IMG/VR virus record: IMGVR_UViG_3300032046_000003
Span: 1-64,000 of that record
Strand: one strand, 5' to 3'
DNA length: 64,000 nt
Source: a virus
Lineage: Duplodnaviria; Heunggongvirae; Uroviricota; Caudoviricetes
Below the pieces are notes generated by a model. The model saw only the letters and a list, made by a program, of their open reading frames with translations. It had not been told where the DNA came from and did no database searches. Shown in pieces: positions 2,508 to 32,153 of the stretch (position 1 is its first letter; every line of letters starts with the position of its first letter). A program made the translations under genes and the position numbers.

Positions 2508-2569
2508 TTTAACAAGAAGGAGGTTTTTGTTAATTAAGTAAAGTTCAAATAAAGTAAAGGAGTATTAAA

Positions 2570-3499: not shown

Positions 3500-3500
3500 A

Positions 3501-3920: not shown

Positions 3921-4139
3921 TGAAAAAAGAAATAAAACCTTGCGAATGTGGCGCAAATAGATGGAAGACAGTAAAAAAGAATAATAAGTATCAAAGAAAA
4001 AAATGTTGAAAACAGCCGAAATGTTTCTGGATGTTATGAACAAAGGAGGGTTGTCAGCTTGAAATCTGTAATATGTTTAAATCAGATTAAAATATTCAAA
4101 ATTAGATCGCCCTTTGAAGGCTAGAGCTGGTACCTGTCC

Positions 4140-13273: not shown

Positions 13274-13527
13274 TGGCTAAATCGTTGTTTGTAGGTAATC
13301 TTCCGTATTCAGCGACCGAGAATGAGATTAAATCTGCGTTTGAACAACATGTCGAGGTGGTGGCTGTAAGGCTTATTACCGACAAGATGACTGGGAGAGC
13401 GAAAGGATTCGGTTTCGTTGAGGTTGCGGATGGAGATATGGAGAAGGCTGTGACGGCTATGAACGGCATGAAGATAGGGGACAGGGAGATCATTGTGAAT
13501 GAGGCTAGGCCTCGTGTGACCCGCTAA
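13273..13527 (+). CDS. RRM-type RNA-binding protein
   Basis: RNP-2 LFVGNL and RNP-1 KGFGFVEV; GTG start; locally higher GC. Confidence 0.8.
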   Translation: MAKSLFVGNLPYSATENEIKSAFEQHVEVVAVRLITDKMTGRAKGFGFVEVADGDMEKAVTAMNGMKIGDREIIVNEARPRVTR

Positions 13528-13540
13528 GGTAACTTAGAGT

Positions 13541-13568
13541 GAGGGGGTATTAATTTATCCCCTCTTTT
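13541..13568 (+). terminator. rho-independent terminator GAGGGGG-loop-CCCCTC-TTTT
   Basis: 6-bp GC stem, 11-nt loop, T tract. Confidence 0.55.
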
Positions 13569-13571
13569 AAA

Positions 13572-13856
13572 ATGTATAAGGAGAATATGTACGACCTAAA
13601 GAAAAAGATATTGAGGAAAAGACACGACCAAGTAGAGGACGTAATAACACATTACTACCTGATGGAGAGAATGTTCAGTACGGAGTTTACAGTCGAAAAG
13701 CATCCCAATAAGGACAAGCTGATAGAGAGGGCGAAGCTTCACAACAAGATGGGCGAAGGCTTGAAGCAGCACTCTACTTACAGGGTCATAGACAACCTGG
13801 AATACAATCAGATACAAAGAGAGAGAATGGATGAGTTCCTCAAGCAAAAAAAATAG
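13572..13856 (+). CDS. hypothetical protein
   Basis: ORF after SD AAGGAGAAT. Confidence 0.4.
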   Translation: MYKENMYDLKKKILRKRHDQVEDVITHYYLMERMFSTEFTVEKHPNKDKLIERAKLHNKMGEGLKQHSTYRVIDNLEYNQIQRERMDEFLKQKK

Positions 13857-14082
13857 GTTCAAGCAGAAGTTGCTGCCTAGAATTACCCATAAAAAAAGAG
13901 AGGCCGAAAAGCAGGCTCTAAAGACCGTGCTCAACAGCATAAGAACAGATCGTTACGATCAGATAAACAATAAAGAGCTTAAACTCATAATAGAGAACTA
14001 CAGGATAGAAGCTATTGACTTGCTGGAGTGCGTGAGCTTCTTGTTAAGGATAGCCCAAGAATTGGAGAAAATAGGAGGATAA
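13831..14082 (+). CDS. hypothetical protein
   Basis: ORF. Confidence 0.35.
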   Translation: MSSSSKKNRFKQKLLPRITHKKREAEKQALKTVLNSIRTDRYDQINNKELKLIIENYRIEAIDLLECVSFLLRIAQELEKIGG

Positions 14083-14084
14083 AA

Positions 14085-14270
14085 ATGCTATTTCAAAGAG
14101 AAGAGCTGTGGAGAATAAGAGAGGACGCATTAAAAGAGGCCAATGTTCAGGGCTTGAACCTGCAGTGGAAACGTGCTTTTGAAAAATTGGCGGATGCGGC
14201 AGACTATGTAGACGCAATGATAGCGAGGACAGAAGATAAATCGATTACTGAAATAGAGGATATAAAATGA
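14085..14270 (+). CDS. hypothetical protein
   Basis: ATG 14085 after AGGAGGATAAAA; track start 14028 overlaps previous gene. Confidence 0.4.
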   Translation: MLFQREELWRIREDALKEANVQGLNLQWKRAFEKLADAADYVDAMIARTEDKSITEIEDIK

Positions 14271-14467
14271 CATTAAAGAAATTTAGAATTGACGAGAATG
14301 ATAATATAGAGAAGGTAAGAAAAGATACCTATCATTGTTCTAAATGTCAAAAAGAGCATGAATTTAATAGTAAAAAGGGTAGAGAACATTTAGAATATAA
14401 AAATACAAACAAATTTAAAGGTTTTAAGGGAAATCCTAACGCAGATAAACAATATAAGGATAATTAA
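14267..14467 (+). CDS. small zinc-binding protein (MTLKKF.. N-terminus family)
   Basis: ATGA-coupled; HCSKCQKEH. Confidence 0.4.
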   Translation: MTLKKFRIDENDNIEKVRKDTYHCSKCQKEHEFNSKKGREHLEYKNTNKFKGFKGNPNADKQYKDN

Positions 14468-14490
14468 TGAATTTCTGGAAAGATATATAA

Positions 14491-15240
14491 ATGACATCAG
14501 GTAAATATATAAAAACTAAACGGCACATATTAAATCAAATTGCTTCTAGAAGAGAACATGGCTGGAATAAAAACCCTGAAGAGGTTAATAAGAAAATAAG
14601 TAAATCATTAAAAGGGATTAAATCTTCTAAGAAAAGTAAAACTTATGAAGAATTTTATGGTGTGGAAAGATCAAAAGAAATAATAAAAAAACAAAGTGAA
14701 GTTAAATTTATTCCTAGGGAAACTCGAGTTTGCGCGTGTGGATGTGAACAATCATTTAGATGTAAAATTAATTCTATAAAGAGATTTTCTCAAGGTCATT
14801 ATAATAAGGGTAAAACTTATGAACAACTATATGGCATTGAAAAAGCTAAAGAATTAAAATTAAATTATAAAAAGAATAGAGCAATTAGACAATTTCCTTA
14901 TAATGACACAAAGCCAGAATTAGCGTTGGACAAAATTTTACAACAATTAAAATTAAGATATGTTAAACAAAAGTATGAATTAGAGGGCACTCCCGATAGA
15001 TTTATAGAGCCTAATATCTGTATTTTTGTTGACGGTGATTACTGGCATGCTAATCCTAAGTTTTACAAGTCTAAAGATTTAATAGCTAATAATTATACTG
15101 CACGAGAAAAATGGAGCAAAGATAATAAAATAACTAAAGATTTAAAGTCTCAAGGTTTTAAGGTTTTAAGGTTTTGGGAGTATGACATTAAGAATGATAC
15201 AAATAAATGTATTGAGGAGATAAAAAGTTGTTTGACTTAA
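14491..15240 (+). CDS. homing endonuclease: NUMOD3-like repeats + CxCGC zinc motif + Vsr-like nuclease
   Basis: ISKSLKGIK / YGIEKAKEL repeats, RVCACGCEQSFRCKINS..FSQGH, C-term FIEPNICIFVDGDYWH..KVLRFWEYDI. Confidence 0.7.
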   Translation: MTSGKYIKTKRHILNQIASRREHGWNKNPEEVNKKISKSLKGIKSSKKSKTYEEFYGVERSKEIIKKQSEVKFIPRETRVCACGCEQSFRCKINSIKRFSQGHYNKGKTYEQLYGIEKAKELKLNYKKNRAIRQFPYNDTKPELALDKILQQLKLRYVKQKYELEGTPDRFIEPNICIFVDGDYWHANPKFYKSKDLIANNYTAREKWSKDNKITKDLKSQGFKVLRFWEYDIKNDTNKCIEEIKSCLT

Positions 15241-16142
15241 AAAGTATTGCATTAAATGTAGTTAAATGGATAGCAATCGTATTGTTAGCCTTGTTCTTGG
15301 GTTACCAAGGGTGGAGACTCGTGGTTACGTATTACAATCCCTTTACTTTTGTGCAAGAGATACAGAACGCATTGGCCAACAATCATCAGACTGAAGTCGC
15401 CTATGAGAAGCTAAAGGGCGAATTGTCCCAGGCCCAGACTGTTAATACGACCAACAAGAAGTTGTTGACCGAGAAAATCAATCAGATAAGCTTGCTGGTC
15501 AAAGACAAAGAAGCCTTAAAAGCGCAGTTGGACAAGATGAACGCCGAAGGGCAGATTATCAGCGAAGCCGAGACAGGACAAGGAAGCGTCACATTAGAGG
15601 CCTGGCTGGAGAGCAAGATGCCTTTCAAGTTCCATGATGGATGGCAGGACATAGACGTAATAGGACCCAACAAATTACATTATAAATGGCACTTTGATAT
15701 TCATGATATATCGATACAGACCAAGGACGAGAACAACAACGTAACTACCATTTATACTGTGTATCTGCAGAATCGAGACGGAGCCAAACTGTACTTGGAC
15801 TATAAGAAGAGTTTTGTCGATCAAAAACCCGAGTATCATCTGTTGAACTGGTGGGATCCGAAGATAAGAATGACTAATTTTGCTGGAATTAAAGGAGTGG
15901 AGTTCGGAGGAGCTTTATCTTTATGTTCAGTATCACTTTCACAAAAACAAAAAGATTATCTATTAGTTTTTCCAGAAATATCAATGTCATCTAATTTCAG
16001 AGAAGGCATGGATATAGGAATTGGCGGCGGAATAAATATTGCGCACTGGCTCCCACTTTTTGAAAATCTTTGGGTAGACGGTAGACTAGTTTTAACAGAT
16101 TATGATAAAACTTCAGTAATTGGCATAGGAGTTACATTATAA
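15228..16142 (+). CDS. membrane-anchored protein with coiled coil
   Basis: N-terminal TM segment then coiled-coil; function unknown. Confidence 0.45.
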   Translation: MFDLKSIALNVVKWIAIVLLALFLGYQGWRLVVTYYNPFTFVQEIQNALANNHQTEVAYEKLKGELSQAQTVNTTNKKLLTEKINQISLLVKDKEALKAQLDKMNAEGQIISEAETGQGSVTLEAWLESKMPFKFHDGWQDIDVIGPNKLHYKWHFDIHDISIQTKDENNNVTTIYTVYLQNRDGAKLYLDYKKSFVDQKPEYHLLNWWDPKIRMTNFAGIKGVEFGGALSLCSVSLSQKQKDYLLVFPEISMSSNFREGMDIGIGGGINIAHWLPLFENLWVDGRLVLTDYDKTSVIGIGVTL

Positions 16143-16252
16143 ATGCCCCAATGGTGGAACGGGAGACACACTAGCCTTAGAAGCTAGCGCCTTAGCGGGC
16201 ATGCTAGTTCAAATCTAGCTTGGGGTATTGCTTCTAGGCTTGGAGACCTAAT

Positions 16253-16465: not shown

Positions 16466-16514
16466 TCGACGGTGCTTGTACACCAAGGGCCTTAATCTAT
16501 ACAAGGAGATTAGC
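16439..16514 (+). repeat. HEG-associated conserved structured element, copy 1
   Basis: ..CTAAGATTAGTCTAATTAACTAATCGACGGTGCTTGTACACCAAGGGCCTTAATCT..AAGGAGATTAGC; outer stem GGCCCT/AGGGCC. Confidence 0.55.
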
Positions 16515-17129
16515 ATGAAATTATGTGAATGTAATTGTGGACAATTAGCTAAAAACAGATTCATTAATGGCCATAATAATAGAGGAAAGCCTTCTACATT
16601 TAAAGGAAGACACCACACAGAAGAAGCAAGAATGAATATAAGTAAAGCTTTAATGGGACATAAATATCCTAAAGAAAGAAACGAAAAAATTAGCAAAACA
16701 ATGAAAGGCAAAAAGAAAGCGCCTTTTACTGAAATACATAAGAATCATATAAGTGAGGCTCGTAAAGGTATTAAATTTTCTAGACAACACACAAGAAAGC
16801 TAAGATTAAAAACTATTGAAAGAATAAATAAAAATTTTGGTATTTGTTTTCCAGCTTATAATAAAAAAGCTTGTGAATTCTTTAAAAGTTATGATAACAT
16901 ACACAACACTCAAGGCCATTATGCAATGTATGGCGGCGGGGAATATCTTATTAAAGAGCTTGGCTATTGGCTAGATTACATCAATTTTGACAAGAAGATA
17001 ATTATAGAGTGGGACGAAATAAAGCATTATAATGAAGGAGGGGAGCTAAAAAGTAAAGATAAAATTAGGCAACAAGAGATTGAGCAAATGTATCCCGATT
17101 TCAAATTTATAAGAATAAGAGAGGTGTAA
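16515..17129 (+). CDS. homing endonuclease-like protein (CxC zinc motif + NUMOD3-like repeats + C-terminal nuclease-like domain)
   Basis: MKLCECNCG..NGHNN; HTEEARMNISKALMG, NEKISKTMKGKK, HISEARKGIKF repeats; ATG 16515 after AAGGAGATTAGC. Confidence 0.6.
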   Translation: MKLCECNCGQLAKNRFINGHNNRGKPSTFKGRHHTEEARMNISKALMGHKYPKERNEKISKTMKGKKKAPFTEIHKNHISEARKGIKFSRQHTRKLRLKTIERINKNFGICFPAYNKKACEFFKSYDNIHNTQGHYAMYGGGEYLIKELGYWLDYINFDKKIIIEWDEIKHYNEGGELKSKDKIRQQEIEQMYPDFKFIRIREV

Positions 17130-18756: not shown

Positions 18757-19152
18757 ATGCGAATTTTCATCCTCGAAGACAACAGTGAGAGAGTAAAATC
18801 TTTCAAAAAAATATTCAAAGACCACGAATTGACCATTACAGACAGATCTGACGATGCTATAAAACTCGTCAAAGACAGCAAATACGATTTTATATTCTTG
18901 GACCACGATCTGGGCGGAGAGCAATACGTAGACAGCAAGGAATACGACACGGGCTTTAGAGTGGCCTGCGCGATTCCTTCATCTGTAAATGAGGGCACAG
19001 ACGTTATAATACACTCTTTTAATCCAGTGGGGGCCAAGAACATGCAGAATATCTTGCCTAACGCCAGGTGCATGCCTTTTGGGACATTTAATGAGAACAC
19101 AATACTTGAAATGAAGAAAGACGACTATGAGCAACTGAGGCTGATGATGTGA
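18757..19152 (+). CDS. stand-alone response-regulator receiver (CheY-like REC) domain protein
   Basis: FILEDN..DFIFLDHDL (phospho-acceptor Asp) ..K pattern, 131 aa, no output domain. Confidence 0.7.
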   Translation: MRIFILEDNSERVKSFKKIFKDHELTITDRSDDAIKLVKDSKYDFIFLDHDLGGEQYVDSKEYDTGFRVACAIPSSVNEGTDVIIHSFNPVGAKNMQNILPNARCMPFGTFNENTILEMKKDDYEQLRLMM

Positions 19153-22294: not shown

Positions 22295-22497
22295 TAGACT
22301 ATAAAAAACTGAATATAAAGCCGAACACAACGATACACAAGGCGTTCACGGCGATAATCGCGCAATGCGAGCCCGAACTGGACATCAGGGGTATCAACAA
22401 AATATATGAAATAACTTTAAAAGACAGAGAATGCAGAATAGCAATGTTTATGATAGTTATGAAAGCATTAGAAGCAAACAAGGAGGAGCTAAGATGA
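22291..22497 (+). CDS. hypothetical protein
   Basis: ATGA-coupled ORF. Confidence 0.35.
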   Translation: MIDYKKLNIKPNTTIHKAFTAIIAQCEPELDIRGINKIYEITLKDRECRIAMFMIVMKALEANKEELR

Positions 22498-22604
22498 CAT
22501 TAAATAAATATAAAATAGACGTAAATGTCGTTGAAAAATCAACTGAAAACGAAGATAATGAAGAAGAGTCCTCCGTAGAAAAAAGTGAAGAAAATGAAAA
22601 ATAA
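22494..22604 (+). CDS. small acidic protein (MTLNKYKIDVN.. N-terminus family)
   Basis: Own translation; ATGA overlap with previous stop; below track cutoff. Confidence 0.35.
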   Translation: MTLNKYKIDVNVVEKSTENEDNEEESSVEKSEENEK

Positions 22605-22643
22605 TGTAAATCAGTGTATAGAAAAGATAAAGGAGGAAATGTT

Positions 22644-24749
22644 ATGAGCGTTGGACTTGACGTGGGAACTATGTTTGTTTGTTCAGCTAGGAAGACTCAG
22701 GACGGCAGAGTCTCATACAGGAAAGACAGGGATATATTCGTAGAGCTGCCGGCAGATACATCAAATTCTAAACAATTCATGGACATGGCGGGGGCAAAAT
22801 TAGTTACGATAGACAACAAGAATTACGCAGTAGGAGAAGAAGCAGTCAACTTTAGCTCTTTCTTCGGTGAGGATTTTAAGAGACCCTTAAAGAACGGCAT
22901 GATCAACCCCTCAGAAGAAGACTTGGCTATTCAGATATTAGACAACATTATAAGGGGTGTTTTAGGCGCTCCTAAACAGCCTGGAGAATTATGCGTGTTC
23001 TCAGTACCAGCAGAGCCTATAGACGAAAAGAGGAATGTCGTGTATCACCAGAAGACGCTTGAGTATTTAATTAAAAAGCAGGGGTTCACAGCAAAGCCTA
23101 TTAACGAATCTCTAGCCATAGTATACTCGGAACTGGCCAAGAACCAGCTTACGGGATTTGGTATATCATGGGGAGCAGGTTTATGTTTAAGTGGAGATAC
23201 AAAAGTGCCTTTACTTAATGGTCAAATTAAGACAATGAGAGAATTATCTGAAGAATATAAAGATAAAGAGTTTTGGTTATACTCCTGTAAAGAAGACGGG
23301 CAAATTGTTCCAGGGTTAGCTTCTAATCCTCGTAAAGTAAAAGAATCAGAAGTTATTAGAATATGGCTTGATAACAATAAATATTTAGATTGCACTCCAG
23401 ACCATAAAATAATGATGCGCAATGGTGAGTATAGAGAGGCTCAGATGCTAAAAGAAAATGATTCTATAATGCCTTTATATAAAGAAGTTGCGTATAAAGA
23501 AAACAAATATAATAAGGGATATTTGAGAGTAAAAAACAACAAAACAAATAGATTTAATTTTGTTCATAGATTGGTTGCTAGTTTCTTCAATAAAATACCT
23601 AAAAATTATATAGTTCATCATAATGATTTTAATAAACTAAATAATGAACCTAATAATTTATATATTTGTTCTATTATAAAACATGGAAAACTTCACAATG
23701 CCGATCATGTGAGGGGTAGAACATGGGAACAAATACTCGGTAGCGAAGAAAGGTCTGAAGAAAGAAAATTGAAACTTTCAAAATCATTAAAGAAAACATA
23801 TAAAGAGCATCCAGAAATTATAAAGAATGCTGCTGAAAAGAGAACAATAAAAAGAGAAGAAAGAATTTGCTTGTGTAAATGCGGTGAAACATTTATTTGT
23901 AAAGAAAATTCAAAACAAAAATATATACACGGGCATGCTATAAGGTTAAGAGAATATAATGAGAATGCTTATAAAAAGGTGATAGCTACTAGAAGATTGA
24001 AAGATAATTATAAACAATCGGATATCACTAAAAATAAAATAAGCGAAAGTTTAAAAGGCAATATTCCCTGGAATAAGGGCTTAAATGGTAATAATTATTT
24101 ATCTCATTATAAAAATGGAATAAAAAACCAAAACTCTTTATATAATCACAAGATTACCAAGATAGAAAAATTAAATAATAAAATTGAAGTTTATGATTTA
24201 TCAGTAAAAGATTATCATAATTTTGCCATAGACGCTGGAATATTTGTGCATAATTGTAATATAAACTTAAGCTATAAAGGATTTCCAGTGTTTGCTTTCT
24301 CGGTTGCTCGCTCAGGAGACTGGATTGACGAGCAGGTCAAGCAAGCCACTGGCAAGCCCACATCAGAAATTGCCGTTATAAAAGAGAATGAGCTTGACTT
24401 GACTAAAGAAGGAGACAACAGAACATTAAGATATTTGAAGAATTATTATGAGGAGTTGGTAGATTATGTTCTTCGCAACATTGTTAGGAAATTTGAACAG
24501 ACTAAAAGGATTCCTCCTACTTTGGATGCCAAGATGAAGACCGCGGAGGCGATACCGATCGTGCTGGCGGGCGGGACATCTCTTCCGAAAGGGTTCCCCG
24601 AGATGTTCAGGGACAGGTTGGAGAAGATAAACTTCCCGTTCAAGATCAGCGAGATTATAATCGCAAAGGAGCCTCTCTTCACGGTCGCTAAAGGCTGCCT
24701 GATAAGCGCAGAAGCGGAAGAGGGTATAACAGAGGCCAACAAGGTTTAA
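22644..24749 (+). CDS. actin-fold ATPase (ParM/MreB/Alp-like) interrupted by an intein
   Basis: Phosphate-1 GLDVGTMFV, phosphate-2 ISWGAG|..|NINL split by intein, adenosine motif VLAGGTSLP; ATG 22644 after AAGGAGGAAATGTT. Confidence 0.7.
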   Translation: MSVGLDVGTMFVCSARKTQDGRVSYRKDRDIFVELPADTSNSKQFMDMAGAKLVTIDNKNYAVGEEAVNFSSFFGEDFKRPLKNGMINPSEEDLAIQILDNIIRGVLGAPKQPGELCVFSVPAEPIDEKRNVVYHQKTLEYLIKKQGFTAKPINESLAIVYSELAKNQLTGFGISWGAGLCLSGDTKVPLLNGQIKTMRELSEEYKDKEFWLYSCKEDGQIVPGLASNPRKVKESEVIRIWLDNNKYLDCTPDHKIMMRNGEYREAQMLKENDSIMPLYKEVAYKENKYNKGYLRVKNNKTNRFNFVHRLVASFFNKIPKNYIVHHNDFNKLNNEPNNLYICSIIKHGKLHNADHVRGRTWEQILGSEERSEERKLKLSKSLKKTYKEHPEIIKNAAEKRTIKREERICLCKCGETFICKENSKQKYIHGHAIRLREYNENAYKKVIATRRLKDNYKQSDITKNKISESLKGNIPWNKGLNGNNYLSHYKNGIKNQNSLYNHKITKIEKLNNKIEVYDLSVKDYHNFAIDAGIFVHNCNINLSYKGFPVFAFSVARSGDWIDEQVKQATGKPTSEIAVIKENELDLTKEGDNRTLRYLKNYYEELVDYVLRNIVRKFEQTKRIPPTLDAKMKTAEAIPIVLAGGTSLPKGFPEMFRDRLEKINFPFKISEIIIAKEPLFTVAKGCLISAEAEEGITEANKV
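23184..24254 (+). mobile_element. intein (357 aa) with HNH endonuclease and CxCxCG zinc motif
   Basis: Starts CLSGDTKV (block A), ends ..FVHN followed by extein Cys (HN/C junction); internal HHNDFNKLNNEPNNLYICSIIKHGKLH (HNH) and ICLCKCGETFICKENSKQKYIHGH. Confidence 0.7.
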
Positions 24750-25079: not shown

Positions 25080-25167
25080 ATATAAAGTATATACTTTGTG
25101 GTGTATAATAATAACGTTGTACAAAATCACAATTACGTGTTATAATATATATGAGGCAACAATTCAT

Positions 25168-25253
25168 CTGGGTGTGGGTCAACTTGGTAGATCACTCGGC
25201 TTGGGACCGAGAGCGTATACGCTTTAATGCAGGTTCAAATCCTGTCACCCAGA
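25168..25253 (+). tRNA. tRNA-Pro(TGG)-like carrying a 12-nt palindromic hairpin (AGCGTATACGCT) in the variable loop
   Basis: Hand-folded cloverleaf: 7-bp acceptor CTGGGTG/CACCCAG, D arm, anticodon loop CTTGGGA, T loop TTCAAAT; removing 25212-25223 restores a 5-nt V loop. Confidence 0.5.
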
Positions 25254-25264
25254 TAAATTAGTAA

Positions 25265-25343
25265 AAGTCGGCTTAGTGTAACGGTAGCATCCAGAATGCT
25301 CGCAAGAGCCAACTGGAGAGTGGTTCGATTCCACAGCCGAAAC
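25265..25343 (+). tRNA. tRNA-like sequence, aberrant fold (possible pseudo-tRNA)
   Basis: T arm GTGG-TTCGATT-CCAC and GCTCGCAAGAGC GNRA hairpin, but no clean acceptor/anticodon arms by hand. Confidence 0.3.
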
Positions 25344-25351
25344 GAATTTAT

Positions 25352-25423
25352 CGCAGGGTGGAGCAGTGGCAGCTCGCTGGGCTCATACCCCGGAGGTCGC
25401 GGGTCCGATTCCCGTCCCTGCTA
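25352..25423 (+). tRNA. tRNA-fMet-like (CAT), initiator features
   Basis: C1:T72 mismatch, three GC pairs in anticodon stem, loop CTCATAC, T loop TCCGATT. Confidence 0.7.
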
Positions 25424-25437
25424 TAAATTAAATATAC

Positions 25438-25505
25438 GGCAGAAGACGTAAGGTGGGATTCCTTACAGCGGCAATAGCTGCTTAGTTTAGTATAGAACGT
25501 CTGCC
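25438..25505 (+). other. structured intergenic RNA candidate (three-helix element)
   Basis: GGCAGA..TCTGCC outer stem enclosing GTAAGG-TGGGATT-CCTTAC and CAGC..GCTG hairpins. Confidence 0.3.
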
Positions 25506-25528
25506 ATTGAATTGAAAAGGAGATTGAA

Positions 25529-25603
25529 ATGAACTCGAACGATTGTTGTAGATTGACCTGGTGGCTGAATGGCCTAGGCGACGATCTGCAAAATCGTATA
25601 TGA
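25529..25603 (+). CDS. leader-peptide-like ORF MNSNDCCRLTWW.. (tandem Cys and Trp codons) preceding/overlapping tRNA-Cys
   Basis: SD AAAAGGAG 6 nt before ATG; TGT TGT at 25544-25549, 5 nt before tRNA-Cys 5' end. Confidence 0.5.
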   Translation: MNSNDCCRLTWWLNGLGDDLQNRI

Positions 25604-25626
25604 GAGTTCGATTCTCTTCCAGGTCT
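25555..25626 (+). tRNA. tRNA-Cys(GCA)
   Basis: Acceptor GACCTGG/CCAGGTC, anticodon stem ACGAT/ATCGT, loop CTGCAAA, T loop TTCGATT. Confidence 0.75.
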
Positions 25627-25639
25627 CAAAAAATAAATT

Positions 25640-25728
25640 AACTAGGTGTGAGGCCGACGGTAATGCGGCAGGGGTAGTTGAAGGCTACATAAGTGATGCT
25701 TCACATCAACCTTTTGTGACACCTAGTT
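25640..25728 (+). other. structured intergenic element bounded by perfect 10-bp inverted repeat AACTAGGTGT / ACACCTAGTT
   Basis: Exact IR read directly; internal GCCG..CGGC and TGATG..CATCA hairpins; not tRNA-like. Confidence 0.35.
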
Positions 25729-25750
25729 TAAAATAAGGAGTAATATAAAA

Positions 25751-25801
25751 ATGTTTTACAAGGGTTACACGACGACAACAACTACGGGGACCAGCAACTA
25801 A
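25751..25801 (+). CDS. leader-peptide-like ORF MFYKGYTTTTTTGTSN (six consecutive Thr codons) preceding tRNA-Thr
   Basis: SD AAGGAG upstream; ACG ACG ACA ACA ACT ACG at 25769-25786. Confidence 0.55.
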   Translation: MFYKGYTTTTTTGTSN

Positions 25802-25821
25802 GCTGGCGTAGTCGACTGCGT

Positions 25822-25902
25822 GCCGGTGTAGCTCAAAATAAAAGGCAGAGCAACGGTTTTGTAAACCGAAGGTTGGGGGTTCAAGTCCTCTCGCCGGCCC
25901 CA
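25822..25902 (+). tRNA. tRNA-Thr(TGT) with encoded CCA
   Basis: Acceptor GCCGGTG/CGCCGGC, anticodon loop TTTGTAA, T loop TTCAAGT, long D loop; CCA at 25900-25902. Confidence 0.6.
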
Positions 25903-25922
25903 AATTTAAAGGAGATTACAAA

Positions 25923-25979
25923 ATGAATTCGACGGATTATCATCATAGCACACTTGCCATCATGGTGAGCGTAGCTTAG
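25923..25979 (+). CDS. leader-peptide-like ORF MNSTDYHHSTLAIMVSVA (His-His) preceding/overlapping tRNA-His
   Basis: SD AAAGGAGATT; CAT CAT at 25941-25946; N-terminus and SD near-identical to the Cys leader. Confidence 0.5.
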   Translation: MNSTDYHHSTLAIMVSVA

Positions 25980-26036
25980 TGGTAAAGCGCCTGCCTGTGA
26001 AACAGGAGAGGTGAGTTCGATTCTCGCCGTTCACAT
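25964..26036 (+). tRNA. tRNA-His(GTG) with G-1
   Basis: Extra 5' G before GTGAGCG, anticodon loop CTGTGAA, T loop TTCGATT. Confidence 0.8.
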
Positions 26037-26041
26037 AAAAT

Positions 26042-26494
26042 ATGAATAAGAAAAAAGATATGGTAATTGTTTCTGGAATTGATGCTTTAAGCCCTTTACT
26101 TGAACAATATAATAAGCGGTTTAAAATTTATAGAGACAGATACTATAAGTTATCTAAGCAGAAAAAAGAAATGATTGATGTACATACAAGTGAAATTATA
26201 GGTATATATAGCCTTAAAAAAGAGTTTAAAAAAATTGGTTTTGTGGTTGAGGATATGAAAAAAACATTAGAGGATGACACTCTAAAACATATTCCTAAAC
26301 TTCGTAAATCTTTAATGAAAGATTTTAGCAAAGATATAATATTTAAGTTAAAACTCGACGAATTAGATAATTGTTTCGGGAAATCTAAAGTAATTTTAAC
26401 ATCGACATTTGAAACATATATTAGTGATGAAGCAGTAAAAAAAGATTTTATTTTAGTGGTGATATTAAAATTAACTGAATGGGTGAAAAAATAA
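26042..26494 (+). CDS. hypothetical protein embedded in tRNA array
   Basis: 150-aa ORF. Confidence 0.45.
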   Translation: MNKKKDMVIVSGIDALSPLLEQYNKRFKIYRDRYYKLSKQKKEMIDVHTSEIIGIYSLKKEFKKIGFVVEDMKKTLEDDTLKHIPKLRKSLMKDFSKDIIFKLKLDELDNCFGKSKVILTSTFETYISDEAVKKDFILVVILKLTEWVKK

Positions 26495-26508
26495 AGGAGA
26501 GTAGTAAA

Positions 26509-26622
26509 ATGAGTATCGAACCATATTATACTGAGGGTAGTTGGCAGAGTGGTCAATTGCAGCTGCCTGTAGAGCAGCCGGCTTTACGCCTTCAGAGGTT
26601 CGAATCCTTTACTACCCAATAA
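26509..26622 (+). CDS. leader-peptide-like ORF MSIEPYYTEGSW.. (Tyr-Tyr) reading into tRNA-Tyr
   Basis: SD AAAGGAGAG; TAT TAT at 26524-26529, 5 nt before tRNA-Tyr. Confidence 0.5.
   Translation: MSIEPYYTEGSWQSGQLQLPVEQPALRLQRFESFTTQ
26535..26618 (+). tRNA. tRNA-Tyr(GTA), class II (long variable arm)
   Basis: Acceptor GGGTAGT/ACTACCC, anticodon stem GCTGC/GCAGC loop CTGTAGA, T loop TTCGAAT. Confidence 0.8.
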
Positions 26623-26634
26623 ACATAGGAGAAC

Positions 26635-26730
26635 ATGATAATGGACACAGACGATAATAATCGAATTAGTAGCAACTCATTCCTGAGTAGAACAATGGTA
26701 GTTCAATGCACTGTTAATGCATCTATGTAG
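26635..26730 (+). CDS. leader-peptide-like ORF MIMDTDDNNRISS.. (Asp x3, Asn x2) preceding tRNA-Asn and tRNA-Asp
   Basis: SD TAGGAGAAC; GAC ACA GAC GAT AAT AAT at 26644-26661. Confidence 0.5.
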   Translation: MIMDTDDNNRISSNSFLSRTMVVQCTVNASM

Positions 26731-26751
26731 GTTCAATTCCTGCCTCAGGAG
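26681..26751 (+). tRNA. tRNA-Asn(GTT)
   Basis: Acceptor TCCTGAG/CTCAGGA, anticodon stem ATGCA/TGCAT loop CTGTTAA, T loop TTCAATT. Confidence 0.8.
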
Positions 26752-26764
26752 TTGGTCGTTACCT

Positions 26765-26836
26765 GGGGTCATGGTATAACGGTTATTACGACTGATTGTC
26801 GATCAGTAAATCGGAGTTCAATTCTCCGTGGCCCCG
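26765..26836 (+). tRNA. tRNA-Asp(GTC)
   Basis: Acceptor GGGGTCA/TGGCCCC, anticodon stem ACTGA/TCAGT loop TTGTCGA, T loop TTCAATT. Confidence 0.8.
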
Positions 26837-26908
26837 TTAAAGCGTTGTTTTAATCTAGTTGATAGGGTAAAAAATTAAAGCTTATATAAGAGTATCAACA
26901 CAATACAT

Positions 26909-26980
26909 TCTCGAGTAGTTCAGCGGGAGAATAACTCCCCTACAAGGAGAAGGTCGCTGGTTCGATCCCAGCCTCGAGAA
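26909..26980 (+). tRNA. tRNA, anticodon TAC (Val?) with unusual C33
   Basis: Acceptor TCTCGAG/CTCGAGA, T loop TTCGATC; anticodon loop read as CCTACAA. Confidence 0.5.
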
Positions 26981-26985
26981 TTTAT

Positions 26986-27056
26986 GGGCCAATAGTTCAG
27001 TGGTAGAACACTCGGCTCATAACCGAAATAGCTTGGTCCGATTCCAGGTTGGCCCA
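26986..27056 (+). tRNA. tRNA(CAT), Ile2(LAU)-like (or elongator Met)
   Basis: Acceptor GGGCCAA/TTGGCCC with C4:G69, C5:G68 and anticodon-stem C29:G41 (TilS-type identity set); loop CTCATAA. Confidence 0.7.
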
Positions 27057-27080
27057 GTTAAATTAAAGGAGATGGTAAAA

Positions 27081-27152
27081 ATGATAGACATAGGAAACAT
27101 AAATATATATAACATTATTGCCGTATCCTGGTCGAGCTCAAGTAGTAATTAA
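27081..27152 (+). CDS. leader-peptide-like ORF MIDIGNINIYNIIAVSWSSSSSN (Ile x7 incl. 4 ATA, Ser x5, Trp) between tRNA-CAT and tRNA-Trp
   Basis: SD AAAGGAGATGG; own translation. Confidence 0.4.
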   Translation: MIDIGNINIYNIIAVSWSSSSSN

Positions 27153-27160
27153 TTACTTTT

Positions 27161-27231
27161 GGGTTCGTAGTTTAATGGAAAAATCATCGTCTCCAAAACG
27201 ATAGTTGTAGGTTCGATTCCTACCGAGCCCG
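27161..27231 (+). tRNA. tRNA-Trp(CCA)
   Basis: Acceptor GGGTTCG/CGAGCCC, anticodon loop CTCCAAA, T arm GTAGG-TTCGATT-CCTAC. Confidence 0.8.
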
Positions 27232-27245
27232 TAATATTTGGAGAG

Positions 27246-27848
27246 ATGGCAGAATGGCTATTGCGCTAACTAAGGAGTAATATGGCTAAAAAGGGTTGCA
27301 TTCCCTGGAATAAAAATTTAACCAAAGAAACAGACGAGAGAGTTAAGAAAAACGGAGAAAATGTTAGTAAAGCAATGACTGGTAGAAAATGGAAACCAAA
27401 AACTTCAGAATCGGCTTTATTACGAATTGAAAGAATTAAAAACGCTGCTAAGAAATATGGAAGAATGGGCGGATATAGAGAAAGAAGTGGTAGGGGTAAA
27501 CAAGGCAGATATAAAGGATATTGGTGTCAAAGTAGTTGGGAATTAGCTTATGTTATTTATAATTTAGAACATGCAATAAAATTCGAAAGGAATAAAGAAG
27601 GGTTTGAATATATTTTTGAAGGCAAAAAACATCTTTATTTCCCAGATTATATAGAAAATAGTTTTTACGTAGAGATTAAAGGTTATTTAACTAAACAAAT
27701 GCAAGTAAAAATAGCTAGTTTTAATAAACCATTAAGAGTTTTGCGAGAGGAAGATATACGGTCTATTTTAAATTATGTGACTCAAAAATATGGTAATGAT
27801 TTTATAAGACTATATGAGCCGTAGGTTCGAATCCTTCTCTCTCCGCCA
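27246..27848 (+). tRNA. class-II (Ser-like) tRNA gene interrupted by a 0.56-kb insertion carrying a homing-endonuclease ORF; 5' part 27246-c.27283, 3' part c.27806-27848 (GCCA end)
   Basis: 5' GGAGAGA-TG-GCAGAATGGCTATTGC and 3' GTAGG-TTCGAAT-CCTTC-TCTCTCC-G-CCA; acceptor halves perfectly complementary; closely resembles neighbouring tRNA-Ser(GCT). Confidence 0.45.
27282..27824 (+). CDS. homing endonuclease-like protein (NUMOD-like N-terminus + PD-(D/E)xK-like nuclease) inserted in tRNA gene
   Basis: GCIPWNKNL motif; FPDYIENSFYVEIKG (PD..ExK); SD AAGGAG. Confidence 0.6.
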   Translation: MAKKGCIPWNKNLTKETDERVKKNGENVSKAMTGRKWKPKTSESALLRIERIKNAAKKYGRMGGYRERSGRGKQGRYKGYWCQSSWELAYVIYNLEHAIKFERNKEGFEYIFEGKKHLYFPDYIENSFYVEIKGYLTKQMQVKIASFNKPLRVLREEDIRSILNYVTQKYGNDFIRLYEP

Positions 27849-27851
27849 ATT

Positions 27852-27936
27852 GGAGAGGTGGCCGAGCGGTTTAAGGCGCTTGTTTGCTAAACAAGTATAT
27901 CGAAAGGTATCATAGGTTCAAATCCTATTCTCTCCG
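27852..27936 (+). tRNA. tRNA-Ser(GCT), class II
   Basis: Acceptor GGAGAGG/TCTCTCC, D loop GCCGAGCGGTTTAAGGC, anticodon loop TTGCTAA, long V arm, T loop TTCAAAT. Confidence 0.8.
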
Positions 27937-27954
27937 TTTTTTTAAAGGAGTAAT

Positions 27955-28734
27955 ATGCCTGGTACTTCAAATGGTAATTATGGAAGAAGTATGTATTCCG
28001 ATCCAAAATGGAGAAGAAAAATAGCAGTAGGACATGTATATAAGAGAATAAATATTAAGAAAATATGTTCTAAATGCAATAATATATTTATAATTGAAAG
28101 AAAAATAGATAAAAATGGTAATGAAGTAGTTTATAATAAAGAAAAGAAATATTGTTTTAGGAAGTGTGCCAATTCTCACGTTCAAACAAAAGAAATAAAT
28201 GATAAAAGAGCAATAAAATTAAGAAAAAAACAGCATAAAATACACTATATAGAGTGTAAATTTTGTCATAAAATTTTTATAGGTAAACTTAAAAGTAGAT
28301 TTTGTAGCAGAAAATGTGTTAACTTAATGCGTAGAATTGAACTTGATGAATATAATAAATACAAAGCAAATTGTCAGTTTAAATTTTCTTTAAATGAATA
28401 TAAAAATAGATTTAATTTTTTATTAATTGAAAAGTTTGGTTGGTATAAGGCTAAAAATAGAGGTAATAATTTAAAAGGTATTTCAAGAGATCATATTATT
28501 TCTATAAATTATGGATTTGAAAATAATATTTCTCCTGAAATTATTTCTCATCCGGCTAATTGTCAACTATTAAGACATAACGAGAATATTTCTAAGGGTA
28601 AAAAATGTGGCTTAACACTAGATCAGCTATTGGACAAAATAGCAAAATGGGATTGTGGTGTAAATGGGAACACTTCTGACTTGCAATCAGAGGATCCGAG
28701 TTCGAGCCTCGGCTATTCCAATAATAGCGTATGA
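27955..28734 (+). CDS. HNH homing endonuclease with Cys-rich zinc fingers; ORF reads through tRNA-Ala at its 3' end
   Basis: CSKCNN..CFRKCANSH zinc motifs; GISRDHIISINYG..NCQLLRHNENISKG HNH; true stop may be earlier than track. Confidence 0.6.
   Translation: MPGTSNGNYGRSMYSDPKWRRKIAVGHVYKRINIKKICSKCNNIFIIERKIDKNGNEVVYNKEKKYCFRKCANSHVQTKEINDKRAIKLRKKQHKIHYIECKFCHKIFIGKLKSRFCSRKCVNLMRRIELDEYNKYKANCQFKFSLNEYKNRFNFLLIEKFGWYKAKNRGNNLKGISRDHIISINYGFENNISPEIISHPANCQLLRHNENISKGKKCGLTLDQLLDKIAKWDCGVNGNTSDLQSEDPSSSLGYSNNSV
28649..28720 (+). tRNA. tRNA-Ala(TGC) (G3:U70 present; one acceptor mismatch)
   Basis: Acceptor GGGATTG/CTATTCC, D stem GTGT/ACAC, anticodon stem TCTGA/TCAGA loop CTTGCAA, T arm CCGAG-TTCGAGC-CTCGG. 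Confidence 0.6.
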
Positions 28735-28754
28735 AATTAAAAAAGAGAATTAAA

Positions 28755-28883
28755 ATGAGAGTATGGGGATTGCCTTGCACAAGGAAAGTTGGTACTCAAG
28801 TCATAGAATCTAAGAAGAATAAACTTAATACGCGTAGAGCACTTAAGAGGAAACTTCAAAAAGAAATTGCGGGTATAGTATAA
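28755..28883 (+). CDS. small basic ORF (42 aa) ending inside tRNA-Gly
   Basis: Own translation MRVWGLPCTRKVGTQ..; weak SD. Confidence 0.25.
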   Translation: MRVWGLPCTRKVGTQVIESKKNKLNTRRALKRKLQKEIAGIV

Positions 28884-28940
28884 TTGGAAGTATACTTGCC
28901 TTCCAAGCAGGTGGAGCAGGTTCGAAACCTGTTACCCGCT
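28870..28940 (+). tRNA. tRNA-Gly(TCC)
   Basis: Acceptor GCGGGTA/TACCCGC, anticodon loop CTTCCAA, T loop TTCGAAA. Confidence 0.8.
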
Positions 28941-28946
28941 TAAAAT

Positions 28947-29017
28947 GCGGATGTAATTTAATGGTAGAATTCCTGGTTGCCAACTAGGATATACGGGTTC
29001 GAGTCCCGTCAACCGCT
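28947..29017 (+). tRNA. tRNA-Gly(GCC)
   Basis: Acceptor GCGGATG/CAACCGC (1 mismatch), anticodon loop TTGCCAA, T loop TTCGAGT. Confidence 0.7.
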
Positions 29018-29043
29018 CAAATAAAGTAGAAGGGGGTGTTAAA

Positions 29044-29136
29044 ATGGTAGACGCTGCCCCAGAAGATTACAAGTTGGCTGAGGAACAGATGAACGAAGAG
29101 TTATTAAATTTAGCAGAAGTAGAAATAATAGAATAA
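29044..29136 (+). CDS. leader-peptide-like ORF MVDAAPEDYKLAEEQMNEELLNLAEVEIIE (Glu x8)
   Basis: Own translation; no Glu tRNA seen downstream in window. Confidence 0.35.
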   Translation: MVDAAPEDYKLAEEQMNEELLNLAEVEIIE

Positions 29137-29145
29137 GGAGATAAA

Positions 29146-29202
29146 ATGTTCCAATTAGTTATAAAGCGAAAACGCAGGAGATGCGCTCGAAAGAGCGCAT
29201 AA
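29146..29202 (+). CDS. leader-peptide-like ORF MFQLVIKRKRRRCARKSA (Arg x5 incl AGG AGA, Lys x3) preceding tRNA-Arg(TCT) and tRNA-Lys(TTT)
   Basis: SD AAGGAGATAAA; 3' end folds as TGCGCTC-GAAA-GAGCGCA hairpin. Confidence 0.5.
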   Translation: MFQLVIKRKRRRCARKSA

Positions 29203-29210
29203 TGCGTCAC

Positions 29211-29283
29211 GCCCATATAGCTCAATTGGATAGAGTATCGGATTTCTAATCCGAAAATGTAAGTTCAAGTCTTACTATGGGCA
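29211..29283 (+). tRNA. tRNA-Arg(TCT)
   Basis: Acceptor GCCCATA/TATGGGC, anticodon loop TTTCTAA, T loop TTCAAGT. Confidence 0.8.
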
Positions 29284-29291
29284 TACTTTTT

Positions 29292-29362
29292 GTGCCTATA
29301 ACTTAATGGTAAAGTAGGTGGCTTTTAACCATCAAATGAAAGTTCGATTCTTTCTAGGCACA
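29292..29362 (+). tRNA. tRNA-Lys(TTT)
   Basis: Acceptor GTGCCTA/TAGGCAC, anticodon loop CTTTTAA, T loop TTCGATT. Confidence 0.8.
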
Positions 29363-29370
29363 TAAAAAAT

Positions 29371-29882: not shown

Positions 29883-29911
29883 TTCAAATCTTCCAATATA
29901 TGCATTATAAT
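29883..29911 (+). promoter_or_regulatory. sigma70-like promoter TTCAAA-17-TATAAT; predicted start at or next to the ATG (leaderless)
   Basis: -10 ends 7 nt before ATG 29918. Confidence 0.5.
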
Positions 29912-29917
29912 ATATAT

Positions 29918-31096
29918 ATGGAAAACAAACTAAGTAAATTTATAATCGAAAGACATAAGAAGGATGGGACAGAAATTGCCCCAGTCAAGGTTAAGAAAGG
30001 CTATTGGATAGAGCTTCATAAAGAGAAGCAAGAAGGATTCATTTATTATCCTGGAACATTGGTACCCCACATACACTTCATGGAATGCAAAAAACACGAC
30101 AAGTATAACCAGCTCAAAGGCGGACCGATGCCTTGGACCAATCCCGAGACTATTGAGATAAACAAAGAGCTTTTGGCCACGCCTAATATATATGAAAAGA
30201 TGCTGAAAGCACAGAAAGATAACGACACTAAAACAATCGAATTCCTTTCAAAGCCTCTGGTGACCTGGGTATGCCCTCAAACATTAGGTAAAAAATCAAT
30301 ATATGCAGCTGATGTCACAGTGCATAATCGAAACGCCAAGAGTGAATATGTATTCGATCAAATAGATAGATTCGAAGAAGGCATAAAGAGGCTTGAAGGC
30401 ATATACAATAAAGAACGAGTAAAGACAACTCGAGGAATTGCCGCATTGGTCAACTTGCTATCAGCCAAATTCTGCTTCAGGGTCGGGAACAACACAGACA
30501 AAAAGACCTCCGGCATAGGAGTCACGACATTCAGGCCGCACAACATAAAGGTGGATAAGCGTAGCATAATACACTTTGTATTCAGAGGCAAGAAGAAAGT
30601 CAAGTGGCACAAGGTGCTGAGGCCTCATACAGACCTCGAGAATAAAATGTATGATGATTTAGTAGCCCTTAAGAACAGAGACAAAGAGTTCCTATTCACG
30701 AATGGTGAAAGAGTAGATAGTGGAGTAGCAAACGAACTGTTCAGAGAGGCAATGGATGTCAAAGAAGACGAAAGAGACTTCTTGTCATTCCACAGTTGGA
30801 GGCATTGGAACGCCTCTAAAGCCATCACTGAACAGGTCGCCAAATTGAGACTCAACAGGAAGCTTAATAAGATAATGAGAAGCAAACGTTCAGGCAACAA
30901 GGACCTCTCCAAGGCGCGATTAATAAATAAGAGTATAAATACATTATTCAAGAAGGTTGCAAAGATTCTGAATGATACGCCGGGAGTTGTTAAGTCGACC
31001 TACGGTGGAGCTCAACCGATCAGGAAATTATATGAGGACAATGGAATAAAATACGACGAGAAACGCAGATCGTTTGACAAGGAGATAATAAAATGA
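29918..31096 (+). CDS. type IB DNA topoisomerase (poxvirus/bacterial type)
   Basis: Blocks VHNRNAKSEY, ..FCFRVG, GVTTFRPHNIKV..FVFRGKKKV, EFLFTNG, HSWRHW, VKSTYGG align with vaccinia TopIB conserved blocks (recalled from memory). Confidence 0.65.
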   Translation: MENKLSKFIIERHKKDGTEIAPVKVKKGYWIELHKEKQEGFIYYPGTLVPHIHFMECKKHDKYNQLKGGPMPWTNPETIEINKELLATPNIYEKMLKAQKDNDTKTIEFLSKPLVTWVCPQTLGKKSIYAADVTVHNRNAKSEYVFDQIDRFEEGIKRLEGIYNKERVKTTRGIAALVNLLSAKFCFRVGNNTDKKTSGIGVTTFRPHNIKVDKRSIIHFVFRGKKKVKWHKVLRPHTDLENKMYDDLVALKNRDKEFLFTNGERVDSGVANELFREAMDVKEDERDFLSFHSWRHWNASKAITEQVAKLRLNRKLNKIMRSKRSGNKDLSKARLINKSINTLFKKVAKILNDTPGVVKSTYGGAQPIRKLYEDNGIKYDEKRRSFDKEIIK

Positions 31097-31698
31097 CACT
31101 TAAAAAATATACGATTAATATAAATTCAGCGGAAAAGTCTCAAAAGCAGCATATCAGAGTGTCCTCAACAGGAAAGCCATTTAGTGCCGGTAAAGGATCA
31201 AGTAAAATTATTGGGACTACTAGAGATGGTAGAACCAATGTTATAGCTAATACTTCTCGTGTTTCATATGATGAATTTATAGCATCATCACAGAAAAAAA
31301 ATGAATATAATGATACTAAATCTTTTATAAAAGACCCTATAATGGAAGCAATTGATGAAGCTATTATGGCAAAAGAAGACTGGAAGAGTTTAGTAGACAA
31401 TTTGGACTATGATATAGTTGAACAAATAATGACTGAAAACGAAGTACCAGAAAAGACTGCTCAAAATATCGTTGATGAAGCTAAAAAAGAATTGATTGAA
31501 TATGGTAATGAAAGAATGAATGCTAAAATAATTAAATTTGACGACCTTATGGATTCAGTTAAATATGTGGCTAAACCAATGAGAAGCGGTGAAGAACCTT
31601 TCTATATGTTTAGATTAGGTGGCAAAAGCTATAGGGTTCAGGACACTGCAGAAGTGCCTAAGATTGCTAAAAAAATGGGCTATAAGATAATATACTAG
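31093..31698 (+). CDS. protein of KQHIRVSSTGKPFSAGKG family (MTLKKY N-terminus)
   Basis: ATGA-coupled; shares 25-aa module with ORFs at 34641, 50316, 52520. Confidence 0.5.
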   Translation: MTLKKYTININSAEKSQKQHIRVSSTGKPFSAGKGSSKIIGTTRDGRTNVIANTSRVSYDEFIASSQKKNEYNDTKSFIKDPIMEAIDEAIMAKEDWKSLVDNLDYDIVEQIMTENEVPEKTAQNIVDEAKKELIEYGNERMNAKIIKFDDLMDSVKYVAKPMRSGEEPFYMFRLGGKSYRVQDTAEVPKIAKKMGYKIIY

Positions 31699-31744: not shown

Positions 31745-31942
31745 ATGATTAAATCAGACATATACCTTATTGATATAGCCAGGACCTCAAAAAGACATCA
31801 TGACATTATAGACAGATATTTCAATCCTAATCATGCTTGTTTTGGATGTTTGCCTTTAGCGTACGCGACCTTAAAGAACGCATGCGAGATTAGAGGATAT
31901 AATATAGAAGAGATACTAAAGGAGCTCAATAATGACTCTTAA
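31745..31942 (+). CDS. hypothetical small protein
   Basis: ORF. Confidence 0.3.
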   Translation: MIKSDIYLIDIARTSKRHHDIIDRYFNPNHACFGCLPLAYATLKNACEIRGYNIEEILKELNNDS

Positions 31943-32153
31943 AAAGTTTAAATTTGATGAAAATTCAACCAAAATAGAAAAATCTAAAACTTATTTTTGC
32001 AATTCTTGTCAAGAGAATCACGAAATTGATAGCGCAATTGGTAAGAAACACGCTAACAAAATTAAAAACAAAATGAAACCAAAATTAGAAAGTAAAGAAT
32101 TTAGAGCTGGTTATATGAAAGAAAAATTAGAGGACACAGTTAATGAAAGATAA
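31932..32153 (+). CDS. small zinc-binding protein (MTLKKFKFDEN N-terminus)
   Basis: Paralog of 14267 ORF (FCNSCQENH). Confidence 0.4.
   Translation: MTLKKFKFDENSTKIEKSKTYFCNSCQENHEIDSAIGKKHANKIKNKMKPKLESKEFRAGYMKEKLEDTVNER

Follow-up and report, generated by a model that had tools for sequence, protein, structure and literature searches.

A class 1 intein with a nested HNH endonuclease in the gene for a volactin-family actin-like protein of a tailed phage

How do the motifs of an actin-fold ATPase and those of an endonuclease come to lie in a single uninterrupted reading frame? We asked this question of a 701-codon open reading frame (ORF; 22644..24749, including the stop codon) in a stretch of 64,000 nucleotides of tailed-phage DNA, positions 1 to 64,000 of the IMG/VR record IMGVR_UViG_3300032046_000003, which is called the window here. 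A first-pass annotation had proposed that an intein carrying an HNH endonuclease interrupts the phosphate-2 motif of a phage actin-fold ATPase. Our analysis makes it very probable that a mobile class 1 HNH intein has invaded the gene for a phage actin-fold ATPase of the volactin family, and the ORF should best be annotated as a 344-residue actin-like protein plus a mobile element. All features of the gene described below lie on the plus strand.

The intein and its nuclease

The gene is preceded by a Shine-Dalgarno sequence, AAGGAGG (22630..22636), located 7 nucleotides ahead of its ATG. On direct reading, the insertion was found exactly where it had been proposed, at 23184..24254, beginning with CLSGDTKV and ending with FVHN, after which Cys comes next. 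This segment of 357 residues (precursor residues 181-537) separates an N-extein of 180 residues (22644..23183) from a C-extein made up of residues 538-701 and the stop codon (24255..24749). Cys1 of the intein is encoded at 23184-23186, its terminal His-Asn at 24249-24254 and the +1 Cys of the C-extein at 24255-24257. The actin-fold motifs that the first-pass annotation had named were all present in the translation. The N-extein contains phosphate-1, GLDVGT (residues 4-9, 22653-22670), and ends in the first half of phosphate-2, GISWGAGL (23160-23183); the C-extein starts with the second half, CNINLSY, and continues with an SGDWID motif (24312-24329) and the adenosine motif LAGGTSLPKGF (24564-24596). 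Removal of the intein fuses the exteins as ...GGAGCAGGTTTA↓TGTAATATAAAC... (arrows mark insertion points throughout), and the fused junction, as the DNA substrate that an intein-free allele would present, reads CTTACGGGATTTGGTATATCATGGGGAGCAGGTTTA↓TGTAATATAAACTTAAGCTATAAAGGATTTCCAGTG. With a guanine-cytosine (GC) content of 27%, the intein stands apart from the exteins (44%) and from the window as a whole (35%), and both the drop and the recovery occur exactly at the junctions.

The excised segment matched the Pfam family Intein_splicing (PF14890, E 4.7e-22) and two NCBIfam models, intein_Nterm (TIGR01445, 40.7 bits, cutoff 24.5) and intein_Cterm (TIGR01443, 21.9 bits, cutoff 15.6). In an alignment of 18 related inteins, the invariant columns of the splicing domain were C1 and T6 in block A (CLSGDT, 23184-23201), T71 and H74 in block B (T71-P-D-H74, 23394-23405), N321-H322-K323 in the NHK motif that begins at 24144, V336-Y337-D338 in block F (VYDLSVKDYHNFA, 24189-24227), and H356-N357 in block G (GIFVHN, 24237-24254). 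The set of catalytic residues for splicing is complete, and comprises Cys1, the Thr and His of block B, the Asp of block F, the terminal His-Asn and the +1 Cys. An AlphaFold 2 (AF2) model of the intein, built on the same alignment, contained an N-terminal Hint lobe at 23184..23498, with predicted local distance difference test (pLDDT) scores of 96-98, and a C-terminal Hint lobe at 24141..24254, with scores of 92-97; scores in the nuclease core were ~93-97. When the model was compared with the PDB using Foldseek, the best matches were solved inteins, namely PI-PfuI and the RecA, DnaB and DnaE inteins, the last three also being matches for the N-terminal lobe. A direct search of the PDB with the intein sequence gave weak intein matches only. 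Blocks A, B, F and G, which the first-pass annotation had suggested looking for, were thus all detected by profiles, and the insertion is a canonical class 1 intein with a nested HNH endonuclease.

The nuclease core (VHRLV...IVHHNDFNKLNNEPNNL...KHGKLH, 23562..23696) matched HNH_3 in Pfam (PF13392, 27.9 bits, cutoff 24.8) and, in a search of PHROGs with the intein, several HNH endonuclease families with E values down to 7.6e-10. Its invariant columns among the related inteins are H128, H145, H146, N154, N158, L159, H167 and H171. Between the core and the C-terminal Hint lobe lies a presumed DNA-binding region (23715..24083) with a GRTWEQILG helix module identified from the alignment (23715-23789), a Cys/His finger (CLCKCGETFICKENSKQKYIHGH, 23868-23936) in which CLCKCG...HGH is seen, and a NUMOD3 motif (24030-24083; Pfam, 30.6 bits, cutoff 20.4). 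The earlier description of the homing module as HNH rather than LAGLIDADG, with a CxCxCG zinc motif, is borne out by these matches. NUMOD3 has a known role in DNA binding, and it is on this role, and on the recurrence of the three modules in free-standing endonuclease genes of the phage, that we base the reading of the region as presumed DNA-binding modules; because AF2 confidence across 23715..24083 is low, a DNA-binding function is predicted for it.

Six free-standing endonuclease-like ORFs in the window (14491-15240, 16476-17129, 43398-44084, 55584-56309, 57090-57761 and 58174-58863) bear Vsr/DUF559 or HNH catalytic domains. They have in common with the intein GKTYEEIYG helix repeats, an RxCxCGC...F.C...K(F/Y)xxGH finger and NUMOD3-like motifs; the best example, 57090-57761, matches positions 178-329 of the intein profile (E 2e-9). 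One kit of DNA-binding modules appears to be paired with different nuclease cores in this phage, and the sequences suggest that the intein nuclease and the other homing endonucleases exchange modules. No other intein was found within the window, and no group I intron was detected there by Rfam.

The host protein and the site of insertion

What kind of protein does the intein interrupt? The spliced product of 344 residues matched the Pfam family Volactin (PF25216) over the whole profile, 1-321 of 321, in one stretch (E 1.7e-82), with a score of 277.9 bits against a gathering cutoff of 35; the match to the N-extein spans 1-178. An AF2 model of the spliced protein, for which 74 family sequences were used, had a mean pLDDT of 95.3 and a predicted template modelling score of 0.93. 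Foldseek placed MamK first among PDB structures (5ljv, TM 0.70/0.74), followed by many MreB structures and by BeeR, actin, FtsA and ParM. When the extein sequence was searched against the PDB, nothing meaningful was returned (best E 0.22), so that the fold is established through the AF2 model and its structural matches. With MamK, MreB and ParM, its best structural matches, the protein has the phosphate-1, phosphate-2 and adenosine motifs in common. However, its scores lie below the cutoffs for MreB_Mbl in Pfam (21.4 bits, cutoff 27) and for MamK in NCBIfam (30.4 bits, cutoff 400), and therefore the protein is a member of the volactin family and not an MreB, MamK or ParM. The first-pass annotation, which had described the host as ParM/MreB/Alp-like, was right about the actin fold but not about the family, which was identified by a Pfam search of the spliced exteins.

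The site of insertion was located by a profile alignment and in the model. Alignment with hhalign to a sequence taken to be that of Thermotoga maritima MreB gave a probability of 96.9%, with GISWGAGLCNINL aligned to VVDIGGGTTEVAV. The junction falls between two residues that correspond to the Thr pair of the MreB motif DIGGGTT (DIGGG-T↓T-E). In the AF2 model, the phosphate-2 hairpin consists of a strand at residues 171-176, a loop at 177-180 and a strand at 181-187. The modelled position of the intein is at the end of the phosphate-2 loop, at the tip of a beta-hairpin, and the two approaches agree with the original placement of the insertion within the phosphate-2 motif. The exteins retain all invariant residues of the family (D6, G8, G177, G179, D205, G286 and G287). 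Ser replaces the usual phosphate-2 Asp in the volactin family, where 111 of 115 motifs read S-x-G-x-G.

Volactin itself (VolA, HVO_2015) forms dynamic filaments in Haloferax volcanii and acts in the transition of this archaeon from rod to disk shape (Schiller et al., 2024; PMC10869688); the paper makes no mention of inteins or viruses. The protein encoded in the window has in common with VolA the full-length PF25216 match and an actin fold in which Ser replaces the phosphate-2 Asp (S-x-G-x-G-M), and it is ~41% identical to a haloarchaeal member of the family (P0015). VolA is encoded on an archaeal chromosome, whereas the protein studied here comes from a bacteriophage and bears an intein. Given its fold and the filament dynamics of volactin in Haloferax (PMC10869688), the spliced protein is most likely to assemble into dynamic filaments in infected cells, although such assembly has been demonstrated in the family for VolA only. 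The rod-to-disk role of VolA cannot be transferred to the phage protein. Volactin-like proteins may constitute a cytoskeleton in phages, in analogy to the tubulin PhuZ.

Established intein chemistry allows a sequence of events to be proposed. Following translation, the intein would splice itself out by an N-S acyl shift at Cys1, trans-thioesterification to the +1 Cys, cyclisation of Asn and an S-N shift, which would join Leu180 to Cys538 and yield the ATPase of 344 residues. Since the phosphate-2 hairpin is split in the unspliced precursor, the latter would be unable to bind ATP or to polymerise, and the protein could function only once it is spliced. Acting on DNA, the HNH nuclease, together with the NUMOD3, zinc-finger and helix modules, would recognise and cut intein-free alleles of co-infecting related phages, and recombinational repair would then copy the intein into the cut allele; the intact HNH motif, the base composition and the existence of empty-site relatives point to such homing.

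Insertion positions across the volactin family

How widespread are such insertions? An exhaustive search with the spliced protein retrieved 1062 family representatives (numbered P0001, the protein of the window, onwards) at E <= 1e-3. Members are found on a bacterial chromosome (P0016), in haloarchaea (P0015) and on huge-phage contigs (LR745208, LR756511 and a 383-kb contig that encodes P0021). In a phage genome collection, the only matches were the two uncultured huge-phage records LR745208 and LR756511. Among the top 150 representatives, 14 (~9%) contain an intein, and more than 25 homologous volactin genes have an intein at the same motif, so the first-pass description of such inteins as rare does not hold for the volactin family. 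It does hold for the searchable literature: a search for natural inteins in volactin, MreB, actin-like proteins or actin homologues, with much of the subscription literature and InBase outside its scope, returned none, but only purification-tag uses or unrelated work. Inteins as such are well known, as are HNH inteins, phage inteins and the targeting of nucleotide-binding loops, and what is new is the fold and family of the host protein and the intein allele itself. The search also draws attention to a large volactin-like actin family in huge phages and bacteria that is without a PHROG family.

The distance from GxG[ML] to GDWID provided a ruler for comparing insertion points. Counted by hand, it is 20 residues in 11 spliced intein-bearing products and in four intein-free relatives, and the motif with this fixed spacing was also present in 115 intein-free proteins; the sole exception was P0011, which has a longer loop. 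Because the spacing is constant, insertion points can be compared without alignment ambiguity, and the spacing, together with the full Volactin match, indicates that removal of the intein restores an uninterrupted actin-fold protein. The HNH inteins of the family start with C[LIV]xxxT and end with F[VIL]HN, and they occupy four offsets after GxG[ML] within five codons. Offset 0 is found in the window and in P0003, P0004, P0011, P0204 and P0224; offset +2 in P0005-7, P0009, P0010, P0012-14, P0202 and P0210; offset +3 in P0008, P0115 and P0178; and offset +4 in P0002. LAGLIDADG-type inteins are present four residues upstream (S↓CGxGM) in P0163 and P0222, and in a second motif (R↓CGDWID) in P0021, P0023, P0157 and P0216, making six insertion positions in two conserved motifs for the family. 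In P0224, the FVHN of the offset-0 intein is followed by Ser (SNVSLCY), so that the +1 nucleophile is not always Cys in the volactin family. Separately, the phage contig that encodes P0004 (L011) carries a second intein gene of the LAGLIDADG type, encoding 802 residues (13226-15634, minus strand), and a gene for a 2358-residue Vint (Hint-like) protein (1-4002, plus strand).

The relationships of the inteins were examined by neighbour joining (68 inteins, 354 columns, 500 bootstraps). Grouping of the inteins by offset was recovered in 0 of 500 bootstraps, and the +3 intein of P0178 fell within the +2 clade P0005-10 with 100% support. The intein of the window paired with the +4 intein of P0002 (58% bootstrap), which is its closest relative at 60% identity. 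The extein of the window is likewise nearest to that of P0002 (64% identical), followed by the empty-site protein P0094 (54%), encoded on a similar phage contig (L006). Intein and extein identities were alike in related pairs (60/64 and 56/57), as is expected if both diverged together. Outside the family, the closest intein relatives lie in phage T4-type portal, GyrB, RtcB, RNR and ThyA genes. Monophyly of the volactin HNH inteins with respect to the portal, GyrB and RtcB inteins was seen in the point tree with 13% bootstrap, and we do not claim it. Several portal proteins of family PF07230 (P0019, P0020, P0026 and P0038, for example) contain two inteins each.

We then compared the insertion points with Cys residues that occur naturally in the 115 intein-free proteins. 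Native Cys was found upstream of GxG in 34% of these, while p1, p3, p4 and p5 are Cys in 17%, 3%, 63% and ~2%, respectively, and these are exactly the positions that serve as +1 residues of inteins. In several of the nearest intein-free relatives, a native Cys stands at the very site where the intein-bearing relative has its insertion: P0149 has ANCAISY where P0005 has AN↓CAIAY, P0138 has CNIAVMY where P0004 has ↓CNIAILY, and P0016 has ISCGGGM where P0163 has S↓CGGGM. The match is not universal, and fails between P0098 and P0003 and between P0094 and the window. We tentatively propose, as a possibility that we would rate well short of even, that the phosphate-2 hairpin of phage and bacterial volactin-like actins is an intein hot spot in which one HNH lineage has repeatedly shifted its insertion point (0, +2, +3, +4), each time to a place ahead of an existing Cys of the recipient and with the loop spacing kept. 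The Cys pattern may be read in two ways. Either related inteins repeatedly entered ahead of whichever Cys was available, or the Cys residues of 'empty' alleles could be scars of precise intein loss. Repeated shifting, if true, would amount to 'nucleophile-guided' ectopic homing or junction sliding, which classical homing to one site does not predict, and this pattern is the part of the present results that most deserves further study.

Neighbouring insertion points have been described before. The P-loop inteins TerL1-a and TerL1-b of mycobacteriophages are inserted 1 residue apart (Kelley et al., 2016; PMC5050341), and two DnaB insertion sites are 2 residues apart (PMC4760082), so that the pattern is not without precedent, although none of the precedents concerns an actin fold. 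The intein of the window resembles the HNH-type phage inteins, which include TerL1-a/b and those in the dCTP deaminase of Aphanizomenon phage CL131, the TerL of Lactobacillus phage CL2 and Bacillus phage SP-15, in its class 1 Hint domain with a nested endonuclease, in its location in a nucleotide-binding loop, in having neighbouring insertion points and in its sporadic spread among related phages. It differs from them in its host, which has an actin (ASKHA) fold, and not that of a P-loop or Rossmann nucleoside triphosphatase, and is targeted in the phosphate-2 hairpin. Identity to database phage inteins is only 27-35%, and the intein of the window has an extra CxCxC(G)...HGH finger. The actin fold thereby joins the ATPases whose nucleotide-binding loops are targets of inteins, which extends the rule known from P-loops. 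Compact as it is, and with Cys at either junction, the HNH intein together with its natural empty-site alleles also offers a ready system for the study of homing and site choice.

Alternative explanations and genomic context

The low GC content, the empty-site relatives, the sporadic distribution of inteins across the volactin family and the intact HNH motif together suggest that the intein is a mobile element. A number of observations weigh against this reading or against a defined role for its host protein. The AF2 model is poor for intein residues 176-318, with pLDDT below 50 at 215-256; splicing and DNA cleavage are both predictions; and Leu precedes the intein here, where most relatives have Met, a difference that might influence the rate of splicing. 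The spliced protein matched no family in PHROGs. The ORFs neighbouring the actin-like gene had no family matches and included no ParR-like gene, its flanks contained short two-copy repeats only and no centromere-like repeats, and gene order was not conserved with P0094, the closest relative without an intein, whose gene has different neighbours in L006.

Of the alternatives, the one that survives best is that the intein still splices but is immobile and decaying, its HNH nuclease no longer cutting, as would be expected late in a homing cycle. We consider this unlikely, though a serious candidate. The intein of the window has a single GKT-helix module, compared with two to four in relatives, and in the alignment large deletions affect the DNA-binding region in the inteins of P0002 and P0010, which indicates that decay does occur in the lineage. 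However, all invariant HNH residues are kept and both HNH_3 and NUMOD3 score above cutoff, and the strong GC difference suggests that the residence of the intein has been too short for it to adopt the composition of the host gene.

A regulatory function is improbable, and less probable than decay. The intein could be kept as a post-translational switch, and would then be more than a parasite; redox state or metals, through Cys1 and the +1 Cys, would time or gate the formation of the phage filament. The insertion does lie in the catalytic phosphate-2 loop, so that the precursor must be inactive, and both splice nucleophiles are Cys; conditional splicing is documented for DnaB inteins (PMC6195587, PMC7360933). 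Insertion into nucleotide-binding loops is, however, the general rule for selfish inteins (PMC4760082, PMC5050341), and the intact nuclease, the low GC content and the empty-site relatives are in keeping with a mobile parasite, with no sign of regulation in the locus.

It is very unlikely that the intein is unable to splice and that the gene is effectively a pseudogene for a dispensable actin-like protein. Nothing speaks directly for this, apart from the absence of the family from PHROGs, and against it stand the open 2.1-kb frame with its strong Shine-Dalgarno sequence, the intact splicing residues and the retention in the exteins of every invariant family residue. Least of all can we credit that the locus is an assembly chimera, or that what looks like an in-frame insertion is a group I intron or a free-standing endonuclease gene, despite the several free-standing endonuclease genes with similar modules in the window, since the same 701-residue protein was found in two independent assemblies (on contigs of 178 kb from ENA and 31 kb from Logan), which shows that the insertion is not an assembly accident, and since the frame is continuous, Hint lobes lie on either side of the nuclease, many homologous genes have inteins at the same motif and Rfam detected no intron. 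A mobile class 1 HNH intein in a volactin-family gene therefore remains the preferred explanation.

The window encodes a large terminase (TerL, 35979-37442) and a portal protein (59772-61454; PF04860, E 1.5e-44). Also encoded are a sigma-70 family factor (from 62781 up to the end of the window), glycosyltransferases, a type IB topoisomerase and 17-18 transfer RNAs (tRNAs), and the DNA is derived from a large tailed phage of a bacterium. An archaeal virus, which the name Volactin might bring to mind, was rejected because of the sigma-70 factor and the tailed-phage TerL and portal, and is further weakened by the occurrence of P0016 on a bacterial chromosome. We also considered a ParMRC-type segregation locus, and rejected it in view of the missing adaptor, the missing centromere repeats and the lack of synteny with L006. 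The first-pass annotation had placed the gene among segregation or cytoskeletal proteins; segregation finds no support at the locus, which has no ParR-like neighbour, no parC-like partner and no iteron array.

Some minor features were recorded near the gene and elsewhere in the window. A tRNA array of 16-17 genes (25167-29363, plus one at 16144-16228), with small ORFs interleaved, begins ~420 nucleotides past the actin-like gene. One of its members (25822-25899) was found by Rfam and missed by ARAGORN, and ARAGORN reported a tRNA-Cys with anticodon ACA at 26908-26981. Eight plus-strand ORFs, each with its own Shine-Dalgarno sequence, start with a motif of ~15 residues, MTL(K/N/A)K(Y/F)xxDxNxx(I)EK. 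These are 14267-14467, 22494-22604, 31093-31698, 31932-32153, 52520-53071 and 54752-55177, with weaker forms at 55178-55579 and 56313-57008, and one of them is an acidic ORF of 36 residues directly upstream of the actin-like gene. The motif could be a shared N-terminal signal, a propeptide or the mark of a paralogous family. Other genes encode an endonuclease VII (11847-12221, E 1.7e-19), a protein with a cREC_REC receiver domain (18757-19152), a phage metallopeptidase (PF18894, 20146-20598) and the type IB topoisomerase, which is of the eukaryotic type (29900-31096). A topoisomerase IB gene is also found near the intein-free homologue in L006.

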